From Candidatus Saccharimonadota bacterium (GTDB taxonomy: Bacteria > Patescibacteriota > Saccharimonadia > Saccharimonadales > Saccharimonadaceae), in assembly GCA_037141755.1 (NCBI GenBank), contig JBAXBX010000002.1:28915-92914 (forward strand): a stretch of DNA of 64,000 bases, written 5' to 3'. How positions within the stretch are numbered: position 1 is the first letter of the stretch; each line of letters begins with the position of its first letter. Below the pieces are notes generated by a model, which was not told where the DNA came from, made no database searches, and saw only the letters and a list, made by a program, of their open reading frames with translations. Below, piece after piece: positions 7,982-62,533 of the stretch. Both the position numbers and the translations under genes were made by a program.

Positions 7982-8611
7982 TTATTTATTCGCAAGTTGG
8001 TCTTTTATTTCATGCAATGTGTCGCGCATCTCTTCGTAATCTGAGACAAAATCAAGATACGATTGTCTAGAAGTAAATAACTCTAAAATTCTAGCTGAAG
8101 TAAGCCAGTTTGGTTCTTTGCCATGTACATAGAAACTTAGGCTTGAGTATTTATACTTTTCCCATAATCTGGGATTCAGGTAAATGTAGCGACTAATATG
8201 TTGCAAATATGATTCTTGATCTATCCTGACAGCCTTGTAACGACTTTCAAACACTGATCCAGTTCGTTTATACTTTAAGTTAAAATAACGACTATAGCTT
8301 GTCATTACGCAGCGCATAAGCTTTTCTAGATAGGGTGTATCGATTTGGTATATCAGCAGATGGAAATGATTAGTCATCAGGCAATATGCCAAAACTTCAA
8401 TCTGTCCAAGGAAGTTAGGGTATATCTCGTTTGTTTTGCTGATAGCAGGCTCCTCGGATAGATATCGTTCGAATAACTTAAGGAAGTACTTATAGTCAGC
8501 ACTTTCTATAAATAGTTTTTGCCTATTAATACCTCTGGCATAAACATGATAATAAGAATTAGGTACTTGATTCTTGATTATATTCCTAGATGGCATATGT
8601 TCATTATACAT
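7982..8611 (-). CDS. HUH/Y1 transposase (IS200-like / REP-associated tyrosine transposase-like)
   Basis: HUH motif in TNHFHLLIY, a catalytic-Tyr region SRYIYLNP, and the YHVYARG start typical of the PF01797-type fold. Confidence 0.8.
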   Translation of the reverse strand: MYNEHMPSRNIIKNQVPNSYYHVYARGINRQKLFIESADYKYFLKLFERYLSEEPAISKTNEIYPNFLGQIEVLAYCLMTNHFHLLIYQIDTPYLEKLMRCVMTSYSRYFNLKYKRTGSVFESRYKAVRIDQESYLQHISRYIYLNPRLWEKYKYSSLSFYVHGKEPNWLTSARILELFTSRQSYLDFVSDYEEMRDTLHEIKDQLANK

Positions 8612-10380: not shown

Positions 10381-11508
10381 GTGAAAAAAGTATTATTCAC
10401 AGCCACCGTTGATTCGCACATACTGGCATTTCATACGCCTTTTTTGAAGTACTTCAAGGAGAATGGCTATGAAGTTCACGTTGCGACAAACGGCACTGAA
10501 AATATACCTTATTGTGACAAAAAGCACGTTATTTCTTTCGAGCGTAGTCCATTTAAATTAAATAACCTTAGGGCAATCAGACAATTAAAAAAAGTTGTTG
10601 ACGCGGAACATTACGATATTATTCATACGCACACGCCAATGGGGGGGGTGGTAACTCGATTGGCGGCAATTGCGGCGCGTAAAAAAGGCACGCGAGTTAT
10701 CTATACAGCGCACGGATTTCACTTTTTTAAGGGCGCACCACTGATTAATTGGCTGACATATTATCCTATCGAAAAGTTAATGTCCAAATATACAGACACA
10801 TTGATAACTATCAATAACGAAGATTACGAACGCGCTAAAAGCAAATTCAAAACTGACATTCAATACGTCCCTGGTGTTGGTATCGACCCAAAAAAGTTCG
10901 ACTTCAAAATGTCAAAATCGCAAAAGTCAGAATTAAGACAATCTCTTGGGTTAGCTGATGATGATTTCGTCATGATTTATCCGGCCGAATTAAACAAGAA
11001 TAAAAATCAATTATGGTTAATTAAATCTATTGCAGATTTAATAAAAAATAACTCAAAAATACACTTATTACTACCAGGTGTCGACAGCCTAAACGGTAAA
11101 TGCCAAAAACTAGCAATAAAACTAGGTATTGATAAAAATATTCACTTTTTGGGATACAGAAAAGACATCCCTCAATTGCTAAAAATAGCAGATTTATCGG
11201 TCTCATCATCGTTGCGAGAGGGGTTGCCTGTGAATATCATGGAGGCGGCTTATCTAGGCCTGCCTATTATTGCGACTAATTGTCGAGGTAATCGAGACAT
11301 AGTTGCAGATACTAATAACGGAAAACTATATGACATAAATGATTCAGATAAAATTATTAATGAAGTTTTTGTTGTTTATAGTAGCATACGGCACCCCTAC
11401 GGTAATATTGCCGTAACGCCTCAAAAAAACAACATATATTCTCTATATATGATTATCTATAGGATGTCGGAAGTATATGATCATAGTGTGCGTGAGGCTA
11501 ATATATAA
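10381..11508 (+). CDS. glycosyltransferase family 4 (GT-B fold)
   Basis: REGLPVNIMEAAYLGLPIIAT (E-x7-E region). The N-terminal domain resembles Glyco_trans_4. Confidence 0.85.
   Translation: MKKVLFTATVDSHILAFHTPFLKYFKENGYEVHVATNGTENIPYCDKKHVISFERSPFKLNNLRAIRQLKKVVDAEHYDIIHTHTPMGGVVTRLAAIAARKKGTRVIYTAHGFHFFKGAPLINWLTYYPIEKLMSKYTDTLITINNEDYERAKSKFKTDIQYVPGVGIDPKKFDFKMSKSQKSELRQSLGLADDDFVMIYPAELNKNKNQLWLIKSIADLIKNNSKIHLLLPGVDSLNGKCQKLAIKLGIDKNIHFLGYRKDIPQLLKIADLSVSSSLREGLPVNIMEAAYLGLPIIATNCRGNRDIVADTNNGKLYDINDSDKIINEVFVVYSSIRHPYGNIAVTPQKNNIYSLYMIIYRMSEVYDHSVREANI
10641..10648 (+). repeat. G8 homopolymer inside the GT4 coding sequence
   Basis: atg ggg ggg gtg encodes M-G-G-V. It is one of only two G/C runs of 8 or more that I saw in the window. 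Confidence 0.9.
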
Positions 11509-26990: not shown

Positions 26991-27311
26991 CTACTTTTCA
27001 GTTTTGCTGGCTTTGCGAGTGCTGGCTTTTTTAGCTTTGCTGGCAAGCGCAACTTTGCGAGCTTCGGCAGCAGCAAATTTAGCTTTAAAGCGATCGACGC
27101 GACCTTCGGTGTCGATAATCTTTTCTTCACCTGTAAAGAATGGGTGAGAAGCTGATGAGATGTGGATTTTAACAAGTGGATACTCGTTGCCATCTTCCCA
27201 TTTAATAGTTTCGGTAGTTTGCGCGGTAGACTGTGTCAAAAACGCAAACCCAGCCACCTCGTCGCTAAATACGACAGGGCGATATTCGGTTGGGTGTAAT
27301 TTAGTTTTCAT
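26991..27311 (-). CDS. rpmE: 50S ribosomal protein L31, type B (Cys-less), with a Lys/Ala-rich C-terminal extension
   Basis: MKTKLHP...HPFFTG...GRVDRF core without CxxC, followed by a basic tail of about 30 aa. Confidence 0.9.
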
Positions 27312-27373
27312 ATTGGACTATTGTATCTGTTTTTTGGTGAATTGTCAAAGGGTAAAGTTGTTCGCTTACGGCA

Positions 27374-27422
27374 CGGGTCCTGCCGTCCGGTTTCCCCGGC
27401 CCAATCCCCACCGAACGTCACC
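27374..27422 (-). ncRNA. compact copy of a conserved bipartite structured motif
   Basis: The minus strand reads GGUGACGUUCGGUGGGG-auugggccgggga-AACCGGACGGCAGGACCCG. Both blocks are identical to 42777-42793 and 42843-42861. Confidence 0.5.
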
Positions 27423-27488
27423 TGTTTTAAATCTGTTACTTAGTCGAAAGTATAGTATACAACATTGAAAGGTGTAAATATCGTAAAT

Positions 27489-27507
27489 TCCTGGGTTGAA
27501 CCTAGGA
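27489..27507. repeat. imperfect palindrome TCCTGGGTTGAACCTAGGA
   Basis: Seen directly. It shares a GGGTT-S-AACC core with the next palindrome. Confidence 0.7.
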
Positions 27508-27553
27508 AAAATAAAACATGGTTCACTACAGAAGATAAGGTATCTACATATTT

Positions 27554-27580
27554 GTCAATCAGGGTTCAACCCTGATTGAC
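27554..27580. repeat. perfect 13-1-13 palindrome GTCAATCAGGGTT-C-AACCCTGATTGAC
   Basis: Seen directly. It lies in the divergent rpmE / DGR-target intergenic region. Confidence 0.85.
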
Positions 27581-27623
27581 TGAATGACGAATTATGATTA
27601 AAACTAGTTTATTGATTTATCAC

Positions 27624-27652
27624 TTGCATTTCTCTACGGGGGGGGCTACAAT
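27624..27652 (+). promoter_or_regulatory. putative promoter of the DGR target gene with a G8 tract in the spacer
   Basis: TTGCAT (27624-27629), then a 17-nt spacer containing G8 (27638-27645), then TACAAT (27647-27652). Confidence 0.5.
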
Positions 27653-27724
27653 AATAAGCATAAGTAATAATTAAGTTTTTTAAATGTATACACATAAGGG
27701 GTTATCCAAAATGAATAAAATATT

Positions 27725-28819
27725 ATGAATAAAATATTCTTAACTTCGAAAAATGAACCTGTCACTCTACCACCTACTACCTACAAACTACCATCTACCA
27801 AACCTGGTTTCACCCATGCTTCGCCAAGGCTACGCAGGATAAAGGTAGCTTCGCCAGCCTTTACAATCGTCGAACTCCTAGTAGTCATCGTAGTCATCGG
27901 TATCCTTGCCGCTATCACAATAGTTAGCTACACTGGTATCTCTCAAAAAGCTATTGTCGCCACCCTCCAATCTGATCTAGGCAATGCTTCAAAAACAATT
28001 AAGCTATATCAAGTCGAACAAGGACAATTTCCAACTTCCTTTGATGCCAACAATTGCCCAGTCCCAGCCAATGCCAGATACTGCCTGAAAGCCAGTTCAG
28101 GTAATACTTTTGACAGGACTGCCTATGCTGCATCTGTCAACAACTCGACTAATCCTCAAACCTTTACATTGGATGTTACTAATACCAATACGACTAAATA
28201 CCGCATTACTAATAATTCAGCACCAATAGCTGTATCTGCCACACCTGAAACACTAGCCGACACAGACCCAGCTAACTGGCTAGCCATAGGAACTCAGGTC
28301 TGGGGCAAATACAACCTTAACGTCGGTACTATGGTTACTGGCGTAACTGCTCAAACTAACAACTTAATCCTAGAAAAATACTGTTCCGCCAACACTGAAT
28401 CAAACTGCACAACCTACGGTGGTCTATACCAATGGGATGAAGCCATGCAATACGTCACAACTAACGGCGCTCAAGGCATCTGTCCAACTGGATCACATAT
28501 TCCATCTGACAACGATTGGAAGGTGTTAGAGGTTCAACTCGGTATGACTCAGGTGCAAGCTGATGCGATTGCTTGGCGCGGTACTAATCAAGGCACTCAA
28601 TTGAAAAATGGCGGAACGTCGGGGTTGAATATGCCGCTTGCCGGCCTCCGCTACACCGACGGGTCCTTCGACACTCTGTCGTCGTTCGCTTACTTGTGGT
28701 CTAGTTCGGAGTCGAGCACTAGTGCTTGGGAACGTACCTTGTACTCGGGTTACGCGACGGTGTACCGTGACACGCTTGGCAAGGCGGGCGGTTTTTCGGT
28801 ACGCTGCCTAGGAAATTGA
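27725..28819 (+). CDS. DGR variable protein: type IV pilin-like N-terminus fused to a FISUMP / C-type-lectin-fold domain
   Basis: Class III signal-like A|FTIVELLVVIVVIGILAAITIVSY. FISUMP-like YGGLYQWDEAM, CPTGSHIPSDNDW and GFSVRCLGN. The last ~62 codons are the VR. Confidence 0.9.
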   Translation: MNKIFLTSKNEPVTLPPTTYKLPSTKPGFTHASPRLRRIKVASPAFTIVELLVVIVVIGILAAITIVSYTGISQKAIVATLQSDLGNASKTIKLYQVEQGQFPTSFDANNCPVPANARYCLKASSGNTFDRTAYAASVNNSTNPQTFTLDVTNTNTTKYRITNNSAPIAVSATPETLADTDPANWLAIGTQVWGKYNLNVGTMVTGVTAQTNNLILEKYCSANTESNCTTYGGLYQWDEAMQYVTTNGAQGICPTGSHIPSDNDWKVLEVQLGMTQVQADAIAWRGTNQGTQLKNGGTSGLNMPLAGLRYTDGSFDTLSSFAYLWSSSESSTSAWERTLYSGYATVYRDTLGKAGGFSVRCLGN

Positions 28820-28821
28820 TT
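28634..28821 (+). repeat. DGR variable repeat (VR)
   Basis: 188-nt ungapped match to 29424-29611. It has 21 mismatches, 20 of them opposite TR adenines. Confidence 0.92.
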
Positions 28822-28935
28822 GTTCGATTTGACTATTTGACCCTTTGACTATTTTTGTACAAAATAAATTAGATTTGGCTGTTAAATATAAAATTTCGTG
28901 ATGGTATGTTTATTAAAATAAGGTGGATAAAAAAT

Positions 28936-29334
28936 ATGACGACATATTACAATTTGCCTGTTTATAAACAAAGTTATGATTTGCTTTTAGAGATATTTAA
29001 ATTGACGAAGGAATTTAATCGGGAATATAAATATACGATTGGTGAAGAACTAAAAAAAGAGACTACTGCAATGATAATCAATATTTATCGAGCTAATAGC
29101 AGCAATAATAAAGTCGATTATATCGTTAGTGCTAGGGAAAATATTGAGGTTATTCGATTATTGATTAGGCTGCTAAAAGATTTAAAACAAATTCAAGTGG
29201 CTAGAATTGCCAGATTAAATTTAGCGATCGAGGAACTGTCGAAACAGTTAACCGGTTGGGGAAATTATTCAAAAATAAATAGTGCTAAAGGGCCAGAACC
29301 ATTCGTTGCCAAGTTGGCGAGTGGGCGCGCCTAA
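28936..29334 (+). CDS. avd: Avd-like accessory protein (four-helix-bundle family)
   Basis: 132 aa. LPVYKQSYDLLLEIFKLTKEF..EYKYTIGEELKKE is typical of the four-helix-bundle / 23S IVS protein family. AGGTGGA RBS. It is positioned between VR and TR. Confidence 0.8.
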   Translation: MTTYYNLPVYKQSYDLLLEIFKLTKEFNREYKYTIGEELKKETTAMIINIYRANSSNNKVDYIVSARENIEVIRLLIRLLKDLKQIQVARIARLNLAIEELSKQLTGWGNYSKINSAKGPEPFVAKLASGRA

Positions 29335-29423: not shown

Positions 29424-29611
29424 CCGCTTGCCGGCAACCGCAACACCGACGGGTCCTTCAACAATCTGTCGTCGAACGCTAACTTGTGGTCTAGTTCGGA
29501 GTCGAGCACTAGTGCTTGGGAACGTAACTTGAACTCGGGTAACGCGACGGTGAACCGTAACACGAATGACAAGGCGAACGGCTTTTCGGTACGATGCCTA
29601 GAAAATTGATT
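29424..29611 (+). repeat. DGR template repeat (TR), non-coding
   Basis: The VR homolog carries AAC/AAT wherever the VR codons vary. It ends 14 nt before the RT ATG. The 65-aa ORF called here is an artefact. Confidence 0.92.
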
Positions 29612-29625
29612 AAAAAGTAAAATAT

Positions 29626-30846
29626 ATGACAGAAAAACATATACAAATTACTCACGAATATAGCCTGATTGAGGATATCTTTCAGGCTTATTATGATGCT
29701 CGTAAAAATAAACGAAATTCTAATAGTTCTTTGGGATTTGAACTTGAATATGAGAAAAACTTGGTACAACTCTTCCACGAAATTAATGAACGAAGTTACA
29801 AGCCCAGGCCTTATTCTGCATTTATTATCGAAAAACCAGTCAAAAGAGAAGTTTTTGCAAGTGAGTTTAGGGATAGAGTAGTCCATCATCTGATATTTAA
29901 TTATATTAATCCAATATTCGACCCACTTTTTATAAATGATAGTTACAGTTGTCGCGTAAATAAAGGTACTTCGTATGGTATAAAAAGAGCTGACTATTTT
30001 ATAAAGTCATGTAGCCAAAACTATAAAAAAGACGCCTACATAATGAAATTAGATGTAGAAGGTTATTTTATGTCGATTGATAAAACGATACTTTTTGAAA
30101 TTATTAAAACGCAAATTATTAAACGTCAAGACAAGTTGATTTGTGAGTTAGATTTAATATTATTTTTGGTTGAAAAGGTTATTTTTTGCGACCCAACGAA
30201 AGATTGCATAATTAAAAGTGGGCGAGAGTCGTGGCAAGGGTTGCCAAAATCAAAAAGTCTGTTCTTTTCTGGTAAAAATAAAGGTCTACCGATAGGTAAT
30301 TTGACATCTCAGCTTTTCGCAAATATTTATCTGAATGAAATTGATCAATTCATAAAACGGGAGCTAAAATTTAAATATTACGGACGATATGTGGATGATA
30401 TGATTTTTGTCGATAATGATAAAGAGCGATTAATATGGGCTATTAAAGAAATTAAAAAATATTTAGCGTCCAATTTATCATTAAAGCTTCATCCAAAGAA
30501 AATATATTTGCAGAACTCCAATAAGGGAGTTAATTTTTTAGGCGCATTTATAAAACCATATAGGATTTTAGTCGGGAAAAGAATAAAAAGTAATTTATAT
30601 CGTAAAGTGTATGAAGGACTATATATTTTGAACTATTCGAATGCTAAAATCAGTGATTTTGATAAAAATTTTGAATTTAAACAATTAATTAATTCATATT
30701 TTGGTATATTAAAACAGGCAAATTCTTATACATTCAGAAAAGGAGTCGTAGAATTAATTGTCGATATATCTAGAGGTGATTTTGTGCCAAATGATGATTT
30801 TAGTGTGATAAGTTTATGTAAAAAATATACAGTTTTGAAAGTGTGA
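29626..30846 (+). CDS. DGR-type reverse transcriptase
   Basis: LPIGNLTSQLFANIYL (DGR-type motif 4), catalytic YVDD, and an RVVHHL fingers region. 406 aa. Confidence 0.9.
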   Translation: MTEKHIQITHEYSLIEDIFQAYYDARKNKRNSNSSLGFELEYEKNLVQLFHEINERSYKPRPYSAFIIEKPVKREVFASEFRDRVVHHLIFNYINPIFDPLFINDSYSCRVNKGTSYGIKRADYFIKSCSQNYKKDAYIMKLDVEGYFMSIDKTILFEIIKTQIIKRQDKLICELDLILFLVEKVIFCDPTKDCIIKSGRESWQGLPKSKSLFFSGKNKGLPIGNLTSQLFANIYLNEIDQFIKRELKFKYYGRYVDDMIFVDNDKERLIWAIKEIKKYLASNLSLKLHPKKIYLQNSNKGVNFLGAFIKPYRILVGKRIKSNLYRKVYEGLYILNYSNAKISDFDKNFEFKQLINSYFGILKQANSYTFRKGVVELIVDISRGDFVPNDDFSVISLCKKYTVLKV

Positions 30847-62481: not shown

Positions 62482-62533
62482 TCTTCTATTATACGTTGTT
62501 GATGGCGTTTTGGGTGCTATAATTATATTAGTT

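Follow-up and report, generated by a model that had tools for sequence, protein, structure and literature searches.

SSR contingency loci are textbook systems in Neisseria, Haemophilus, Campylobacter and Bordetella. In Neisseria meningitidis a poly-G tract separates the -35 from the -10 in porA's promoter, where tracts of 11G, 10G and 9G grade expression instead of acting as a pure ON/OFF switch, and in Neisseria mononucleotide phase variation becomes 100- to 1,000-fold more frequent once MMR is lost (PMC3639595). Likewise, C7 and C8 versions of the C-stretch in the Bordetella fimX promoter differed 3.8-fold in transcript level (PMC1891110), and a further report describes, in the AT-rich genomes of Campylobacter and Helicobacter, hypermutable G/C tracts, both intergenic and coding, in surface-structure genes including those for glycosyltransferases (PMC8355987). 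In Saccharibacteria, MutS and MutL were not found by Jaffe et al. 2021 (PMC8406219).

The locus described here belongs to a 64 kb stretch of Saccharibacteria DNA, which was analysed as a whole and is called the window below. It resembles porA (and opc) in that a G homopolymer, G8, lies in the 17-nt spacer of a putative promoter before a surface appendage gene; it differs in its CPR/Saccharibacteria setting, a reduced genome reportedly without MutS/MutL constitutively, in its shorter tract, in that the gene product is also diversified by a DGR, and in that switching is here proposed only. The likeness to fim2, fim3 and fimX of Bordetella pertussis is that of a homopolymer in the promoter of a fimbrial major-subunit gene, the window gene being pilus- or fimbria-like. 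The Bordetella C-stretch (10-18 nt), however, sets the distance between upstream elements, namely an activator (BvgA) site, and the -10, whereas the window promoter has no known activator and, 44 nt upstream of its -35, a conserved palindrome. The pair of G8 tracts in the window, which fall in the putative pilin promoter and in a GT4 ORF, fits the Campylobacter/Helicobacter pattern, but Campylobacter has dozens of tracts per genome and here there are two in the 64 kb examined. To our knowledge, Campylobacter and Helicobacter are without MutS/MutL-type repair. With the known CPR DGRs that have pilin-like/Fib_succ_major targets, the locus shares the RT, the Avd, an adenine-specific TR/VR pair and a VR at the target C-terminus; what differs is an SSR in the control region of the target. 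In the literature searched, SSR contingency loci were described neither in CPR bacteria nor on DGR targets, and DGR, Saccharibacteria or Patescibacteria were nowhere joined with SSR phase variation. The kind of mechanism is thus known, and what is apparently new is its setting, a CPR episymbiont with an MMR-less reduced genome and a switch placed on a DGR target.

The DGR cassette and its pilin-like target

The target gene (27725-28819, + strand) encodes a protein of 364 aa made up, in order, of a long leader, a class III (prepilin) signal A/FTIVELLVVIVVIGILAAI, a pilin-like N-domain and a C-terminal Fib_succ_major/TIGR02145 domain, which contains the VR. The Pfam match to Fib_succ_major has E=1.8e-31, and that to N_methyl scores 18.9 bits, under the 21.2 cutoff. 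The prepilin motif reads ...SPA/FTIVELLVVIVVIGILAAITIV, and its F, T, I, V, E and L do not vary among the 32 aligned homologs. The predicted class III signal has the leader ending in G/A, the F-T-x-x-E and the hydrophobic helix expected of one, and the product is likely, by prediction, a pilus-like surface protein. Exactly on the prepilin cleavage motif falls a 51-nt in-frame insertion (27815-27865, + strand; GFT-HASPRLRRIKVASPAFT-IVELL), recognised by alignment with the homologs L017 and L167; no notable secondary structure was found in it. A similar 'SPRLRR' insert occurs in P0003, between duplicated TIVELL.

Downstream, at the target gene's 3' end, the VR (28634-28821, + strand) is matched by the TR (29424-29611, + strand) in a 188-nt repeat, with 21 mismatches over the 188 nt, 20 of them at TR adenines. 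Between VR and TR sits the Avd accessory gene (28936-29334, + strand; Pfam bAvd E=5.5e-15), of 132 aa in public assemblies and with an ORF that could begin at 28906, and 3' of the TR lies the DGR RT gene (29626-30846, + strand; Pfam RVT_1 E=8.6e-17). The cassette is a canonical DGR, and the pilin-like gene is its target. A sister cassette in another species, L011, has the same layout and the same VR-TR spacing, stands 3' of pnp and encodes an RT to which the window RT is 79% identical.

The divergent genes upstream of the target are rpmE and prfA. In L004 the L31 protein is identical and the DNA is 95.5% identical over rpmE-prfA, and synteny is lost at 27353/27354, directly after the -35 box of the rpmE promoter. 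Because of this synteny break and of the homologous cassette near pnp, we regard the pilin-DGR cassette as an accessory, relocatable island. Just inside the strain-specific side there is a GC-rich 60-nt segment (27360-27420) amid AT-rich intergenic DNA, in which we found no Rfam match and no significant fold.

Two further observations concern the VR itself. The L002 contig (Logan SRR7053307) ends at window position 28721, inside the VR, which fits either a VR that is heterogeneous among the reads or a confusion of the TR and VR repeats in assembly. Among alleles of the sister-cassette target, P0251 and P0253 (of the P0002 cluster) have lost the stop codon and are 16-30 aa longer (...CLGNWFD...); the stop codon lies within the VR, so that the protein may now and then be lengthened by DGR mutagenesis.

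The G tract and its putative promoter

In a window composed of 21.8% G and 17.2% C (GC 39%), G/C runs of at least 8 nt number exactly two, at 10641-10648 and 27638-27645. Runs of G of lengths 1 to 8 are counted 8351, 2164, 329, 61, 6, 1, 0 and 2 times, and the longest C run is 4; G/C runs past 5 nt are thus strongly depleted, the two G8 excepted, and because the G run-length histogram falls off before length 8 these two tracts are outliers. The expected number of runs of at least 8 nt is 0.26 for G and 0.04 for C under an iid model, 0.26 and 0.02 at order 1, and 0.04 and 0.003 at order 2, the last two orders being computed analytically. Similarly, a scan of the 64 kb for SSRs with unit sizes 1-7, A/T homopolymers excluded, returned the two G8 tracts only. 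The preliminary description had given the arrangement as TTGCAT, 17 nt with G8 inside, and TACAAT, had counted just two G/C runs of this length where fewer than one was expected, and had placed both in surface-structure genes. On re-reading the sequence the coordinates proved exact, the run count agrees, an expectation of 0.04-0.3 keeps the chance figure below one, and the tracts do lie in the putative promoter of the pilin-like DGR target and in a glycosyltransferase gene of a polysaccharide cluster.

The stretch 27624-27652 reads TTGCATTTCTCTACGGGGGGGGCTACAAT, that is, TTGCAT-TTCTCTACGGGGGGGGC-TACAAT. The putative -35, TTGCAT (27624-27629, + strand), matches the consensus TTGACA at 3/6 positions, TTG alone being in agreement; this TTG is kept at the same register in relatives (TTGCGC in L017, TTGTGC in L167 and L168, TTGTAT in L011 and L169, TTGCCG in L111). 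The 17-nt spacer (27630-27646, + strand) consists of TTCTCTAC-G8-C, its homopolymer (27638-27645, + strand) being the candidate slippage tract, at about -21 to -14 from the start predicted at 27658-27660 (+ strand), 6-8 nt past the -10, by promoter geometry only. At 8 nt the tract falls within the length at which slipping is expected, ~7-8 nt or more, and one G less or more would change the spacer from 17 nt to 16 (G7) or 18 (G9). The putative -10, TACAAT (27647-27652, + strand), agrees with the consensus at 5/6 positions and is preceded by GC (GCTACAAT); the G at -14 makes it a partial extended -10, in which G stands where the TGn motif has its T. Because of this substitution and of the 5/6 hexamer, a heavier reliance on the -35 is to be expected of the G8 promoter. 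The + strand of the window has five copies of GCTAYAAT (20161, 27645, 44209, 58927 and 62516), in every case at most 75 nt 5' of a predicted ORF start or, at 62516, right at one, and three of the four copies other than that at 27645 are TGCTATAAT; the motif looks like the extended -10 of this genome.

The closest homologs of the N-terminal half of the target, L017, L167 and L168, have promoters reading CTTGCGC-TTTCAT-G9-TGC-TATTAT, CTTGTGC-TTCCAT-GGGGTGGGA-TGC-TATTAT and CTTGTGC-TTTAACCTTGGGTAATGC-TAATAT, respectively, and in alignment the G8 of the window coincides with the G-rich cores of the first two, G9 and GGGGTGGGA. The -10 regions in relatives are TGCTATAAT, TGCTACAAT or TGCTATTAT. The homologous pilin gene of L167 and L168 is preceded by an intergenic gap of just 61-64 nt, about half of which is filled by the promoter element. 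Since these orthologous promoters align at the same position, since GCTAYAAT looks like a -10 of this genome and since a distant CPR pilin gene, L111, has G9 in the spacer of a called promoter, we infer that TTGCAT-17-TACAAT is probably the active promoter of the target gene.

The 5' leader of the window gene is a departure from these relatives. The ATG starts 9 nt after the -10 in L017, L167 and L168, and ~58 nt after it in the window, counted to the first ATG; with L011 and L169 included, the ATG lies only 6-9 nt past the -10 hexamer. Judged from this spacing, the pilin mRNAs of all five are probably leaderless and that of the window has probably gained, relative to them, a leader of ~50 nt with a Shine-Dalgarno sequence. 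The greater distance in the window may also accommodate a second start site that went unrecognised. The extra ~58 nt hold the Shine-Dalgarno-like AAGGGG (27696-27701, + strand), 9 nt 5' of the ATG at 27711, a uORF and a duplication in the start region, namely a 14-nt tandem duplication of ATGAATAAAATATT (two copies, 27711-27738, + strand). Its first ATG opens a 5-codon uORF, MNKIL* (27711-27728), the stop of which overlaps the second ATG (ATGA, 27725-27728). L001 and L002 are identical to the window here, and the orthologous start of L167 is ATGAATAAACTATTC. Were one 14-nt copy lost, the ATG nearer the SD would come directly into frame, so that the duplication may serve for translational coupling or act as a second switch, slower than the first.

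Repeat tracts in relatives and across the pilin family

At the orthologous site the tract is G8 in the window, G9 in L017, interrupted (GGGGTGGGA) in L167 and absent in L168, so that tract length varies among related strains or species; because of this series the tract is not a conserved sequence element. The preliminary description had held that a tract invariant in deep population data and conserved in relatives would speak against a switch, and the comparison among relatives did not find it conserved. The spacer measures 17 nt in the window, 18 nt in L017, L167 and L168, and 16 nt in L111. This last is a distant CPR pilin-Fib_succ gene (33% identity), for which the promoter scan called TTGCCG-16-TATAAT with a TG extension and in which the spacer starts with G9; its poly-G was acquired independently. 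Searches with the N-terminus of L017 returned no homolog nearer than P0121 and P0122, and IMG/VR pattern scans with the three poly-G promoters, tract length left free, gave 0 hits; an IMG/VR protein scan added 8 loci.

As for the organism itself, its other populations were sought through exact matches to the L31, RT, pilin, Avd and Wzz proteins, which gave at least one ENA contig together with short Logan or JGI contigs. No length variant of G8 was found, at whichever of the two tracts each spans, in L001, L002 or L170, all 100% identical to the window where compared (L001 across the intergenic region), L002 and L170 both coming from Logan run SRR7053307 and these readable assemblies not being independent of the window. 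As to the phase-variation switch that the preliminary description had proposed, its architecture, its rarity and its surface-gene context stand, whereas G8 length variants are missing from the readable assemblies.

The sister DGR cassette provides a case in which length does vary. Here the repeat is a (CT)n in the 5' leader of the target, after a leaderless-type ATG (TATAAT + 6 nt + ATG), with n=7 in L183, 11 in L169, 12 in L184 and 13 in L011 and L180-182, the identity among these alleles being 98.9% or more. Over 1,484 nt, a stretch that takes in the VR, the sole difference between L169 and L184 is one CT unit, and this one unit throws the first ATG out of frame, the products being of 437 aa and 415 aa. 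Likewise, the 90% cluster of the sister-cassette protein holds four long and six short N-termini, the remaining differences lying mainly in the VR. Allele comparison thus indicates that in the sister cassette SSR slippage and DGR mutagenesis act on one gene.

Repeats of other kinds occur at the same place across the family. Among the 47 pilin-type genes of the fetched loci, scanned over 330 nt upstream of the FTIVELL codons, seven have a non-A/T SSR upstream: G8 or G9 in three, (TAC)11 in L009, and (CT)5, (CT)13 and (CT)14. Three of the seven G/C runs of at least 8 nt in the ~834 kb of window and fetched loci fall in the ~16 kb upstream of pilin-type genes, where simple arithmetic from the background rate gives ~0.08; further such runs in the fetched loci are found in L048, L064 and L096, from other phyla and contexts. 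(LS)n leaders, the translated form of (CT)n, are present in at least 13 of 207 family proteins. In L009 the (TAC)11 (2874-2906) lies between TTGTAT and TGCTACAAT, the -35 being pushed ~60 nt from the -10, while the homologous promoter of L169 and L011 has an 18-nt spacer, reading TTAC TAT TAC GCTCATGC in L169. Outside the CPR, in Bacteroidota and unclassified contigs, Fib_succ_major genes have in their vicinity heptanucleotide repeats in tandem (5-9 copies) and a (CT)9 (L046 152-360 and 4574; L029 5034; L041 4974), which may be further SSR switches on this family.

The poly-G tract goes with the pilin family and not with the DGR, since L017 has the G9 promoter and no adjacent DGR. A cis role in the DGR itself (IMH, target recognition) was rejected for the same reason and because the tract stands ~1 kb upstream of the VR.

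Readings of the tract, their implications and the second G8

We favour, as moderately probable, the reading of G8 as a promoter-spacer contingency switch of the porA/fim type on a DGR target. A slippage-prone G8 would sit in the spacer of a sigma-70-type promoter driving the DGR-diversified pilin-like gene. During replication the tract would gain or lose one G, with MutS and MutL, reportedly absent in Saccharibacteria, not there to correct it; each step would alter the distance from the TTG of the -35 to the -10 and move transcription up or down, and larger excursions in tract length would turn it off. The population would then consist of cells with differing amounts of the appendage protein, the ligand-binding tip of which would separately be rewritten by the DGR. 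On such a scheme G8 would change length at high frequency in the organism and its length would alter expression, both of which we infer. Since the orthologs use 18 nt, G8 and G9 may both be 'on', or permissive, states.

The tract could also be an incidental homopolymer, real and physically prone to slippage but arisen by drift from a G-rich spacer, unselected, and housed in an extended -10 promoter that tolerates 16-18 nt. This seems unlikely to us, if far from negligible. The orthologs do have spacers that are G-rich but non-repetitive (GGGGTGGGA, TTGGGTAA) and constant at 18 nt, the other promoters of the window show strong (T)GCTATAAT boxes without a clear -35, and all readable assemblies of the organism have G8; to judge from these promoter sequences, the RNA polymerase here may be largely insensitive to the length of the spacer, and an extended -10 could blunt the effect of the spacer. 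Drift fits poorly, however, with a window in which G/C runs are depleted past 5 nt and which yet has two G8, both at surface-structure loci, with the independent poly-G in the L111 spacer, and with the other types of SSR, themselves variable, at the 5' end of the same gene in relatives; the weaker TGn and the 5/6 -10 should, moreover, raise the reliance on the -35.

It is improbable, in our estimate, that the promoter lies elsewhere and that the G tract belongs to a 5' UTR or upstream regulatory region, where it might, say, bind a protein or form an RNA structure. The consensus promoter scan left the G8 site uncalled and called no + strand promoter anywhere in the 413-nt intergenic region, and the extra ~58 nt with Shine-Dalgarno and uORF before the start codon, unlike the orthologs, would suit this arrangement, as would the conserved palindrome 44 nt upstream of the -35. 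Yet in 27653-27710, between the putative -10 and the first ATG, no superior -10/-35 pair was found, the TTG-N17/18-TAnnAT of the window aligns with the short intergenic promoters of the orthologs, and no Rfam family matches beyond chance level (E=0.15). That the tract arose as an artefact of sequencing or assembly, a miscalled poly-G for instance, is hardly credible and was rejected, for while errors in homopolymer length are common and poly-G at read ends can stem from two-colour Illumina chemistry, this tract is internal to long contigs, is the same in the ENA assembly and the Logan contigs, and recurs in unrelated, independent projects (L017 in GenBank, at the orthologous position, and L111 in JGI), and the coding G8 at 10641 leaves its 375-aa ORF intact.

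The palindrome is a perfect one of 12 bp with a 3-nt loop, GTCAATCAGGGT TCA ACCCTGATTGAC (27554-27580), with a fold of -12.7 kcal/mol (z=-6.8), and is unique in the window (1 match against 0.02 expected). Its core, TCAGGGT...ACCCTGA followed by TGAyTGA, also stands 5' of the pilin promoters of two other species (L009 2819-2835; L011 2811-2838). It could be the operator of a regulator, an insulating terminator or a cassette boundary. An RNA gene was rejected, as Rfam at gathering thresholds was empty for the window, L017, L111, L009 and L011; a permissive Rfam scan of 27250-27750 gave only a chance-level match to Spd-sr07 (E=0.15, 27527-27583), and searches for tRNA and tmRNA found none.

A broader proposal, to which we give somewhat less than even credence, is put forward tentatively: that in MMR-less Saccharibacteria, and in one or more further CPR lineages, the DGR-diversified pilin-like adhesins would also be contingency loci, in a two-tier form of bet-hedging with SSRs placed independently, as poly-G or (TAC)n in the spacer or as (CT)n just past a leaderless start codon. 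CPR/Saccharibacteria are obligate episymbionts, attachment to the host is thought to be pilus-dependent, and DGRs are already known to diversify such pilus proteins. One tier would be a stochastic on/off or dosage switch, and the other the rewriting of the binding site by a retroelement, both on the host-attachment organelle of an episymbiont; tiny genomes would thus bring two kinds of hypermutation, unrelated to each other, to bear on a single surface organelle. Were the pilin promoter to read through into avd-TR-rt, the tract would gate mutagenic retrohoming too. If the proposal is true, it would explain in part why these loci are fragmented in assemblies and heterogeneous in their alleles, and G7/G8/G9 or (CT)n would serve as a marker, countable in reads, of host-range or phage-evasion dynamics in uncultured populations.

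The second G8 (10641-10648, + strand) lies in frame inside the ORF 10381-11508, where ATG GGG GGG GTG encodes M-G-G-V; of the Gly codons in the window, GGG is the least used (6.8%). The ORF (375 aa) is that of a GT4/GT1 glycosyltransferase (Pfam E=3e-30), with a Wzz-like gene, a Bac_transf sugar transferase and a Wzy polymerase gene as neighbours in a Wzy-type polysaccharide cluster. In L170, the only other assembly read at 10641, the tract is likewise G8, an exact match to the window. From its position in the reading frame it is a candidate translational frameshift switch of a polysaccharide gene. Directly upstream of the polysaccharide cluster lies an IS200/IS605-type Y1 transposase gene (7982-8611, - strand), identified by Pfam Y1_Tnp in the L170 annotation.
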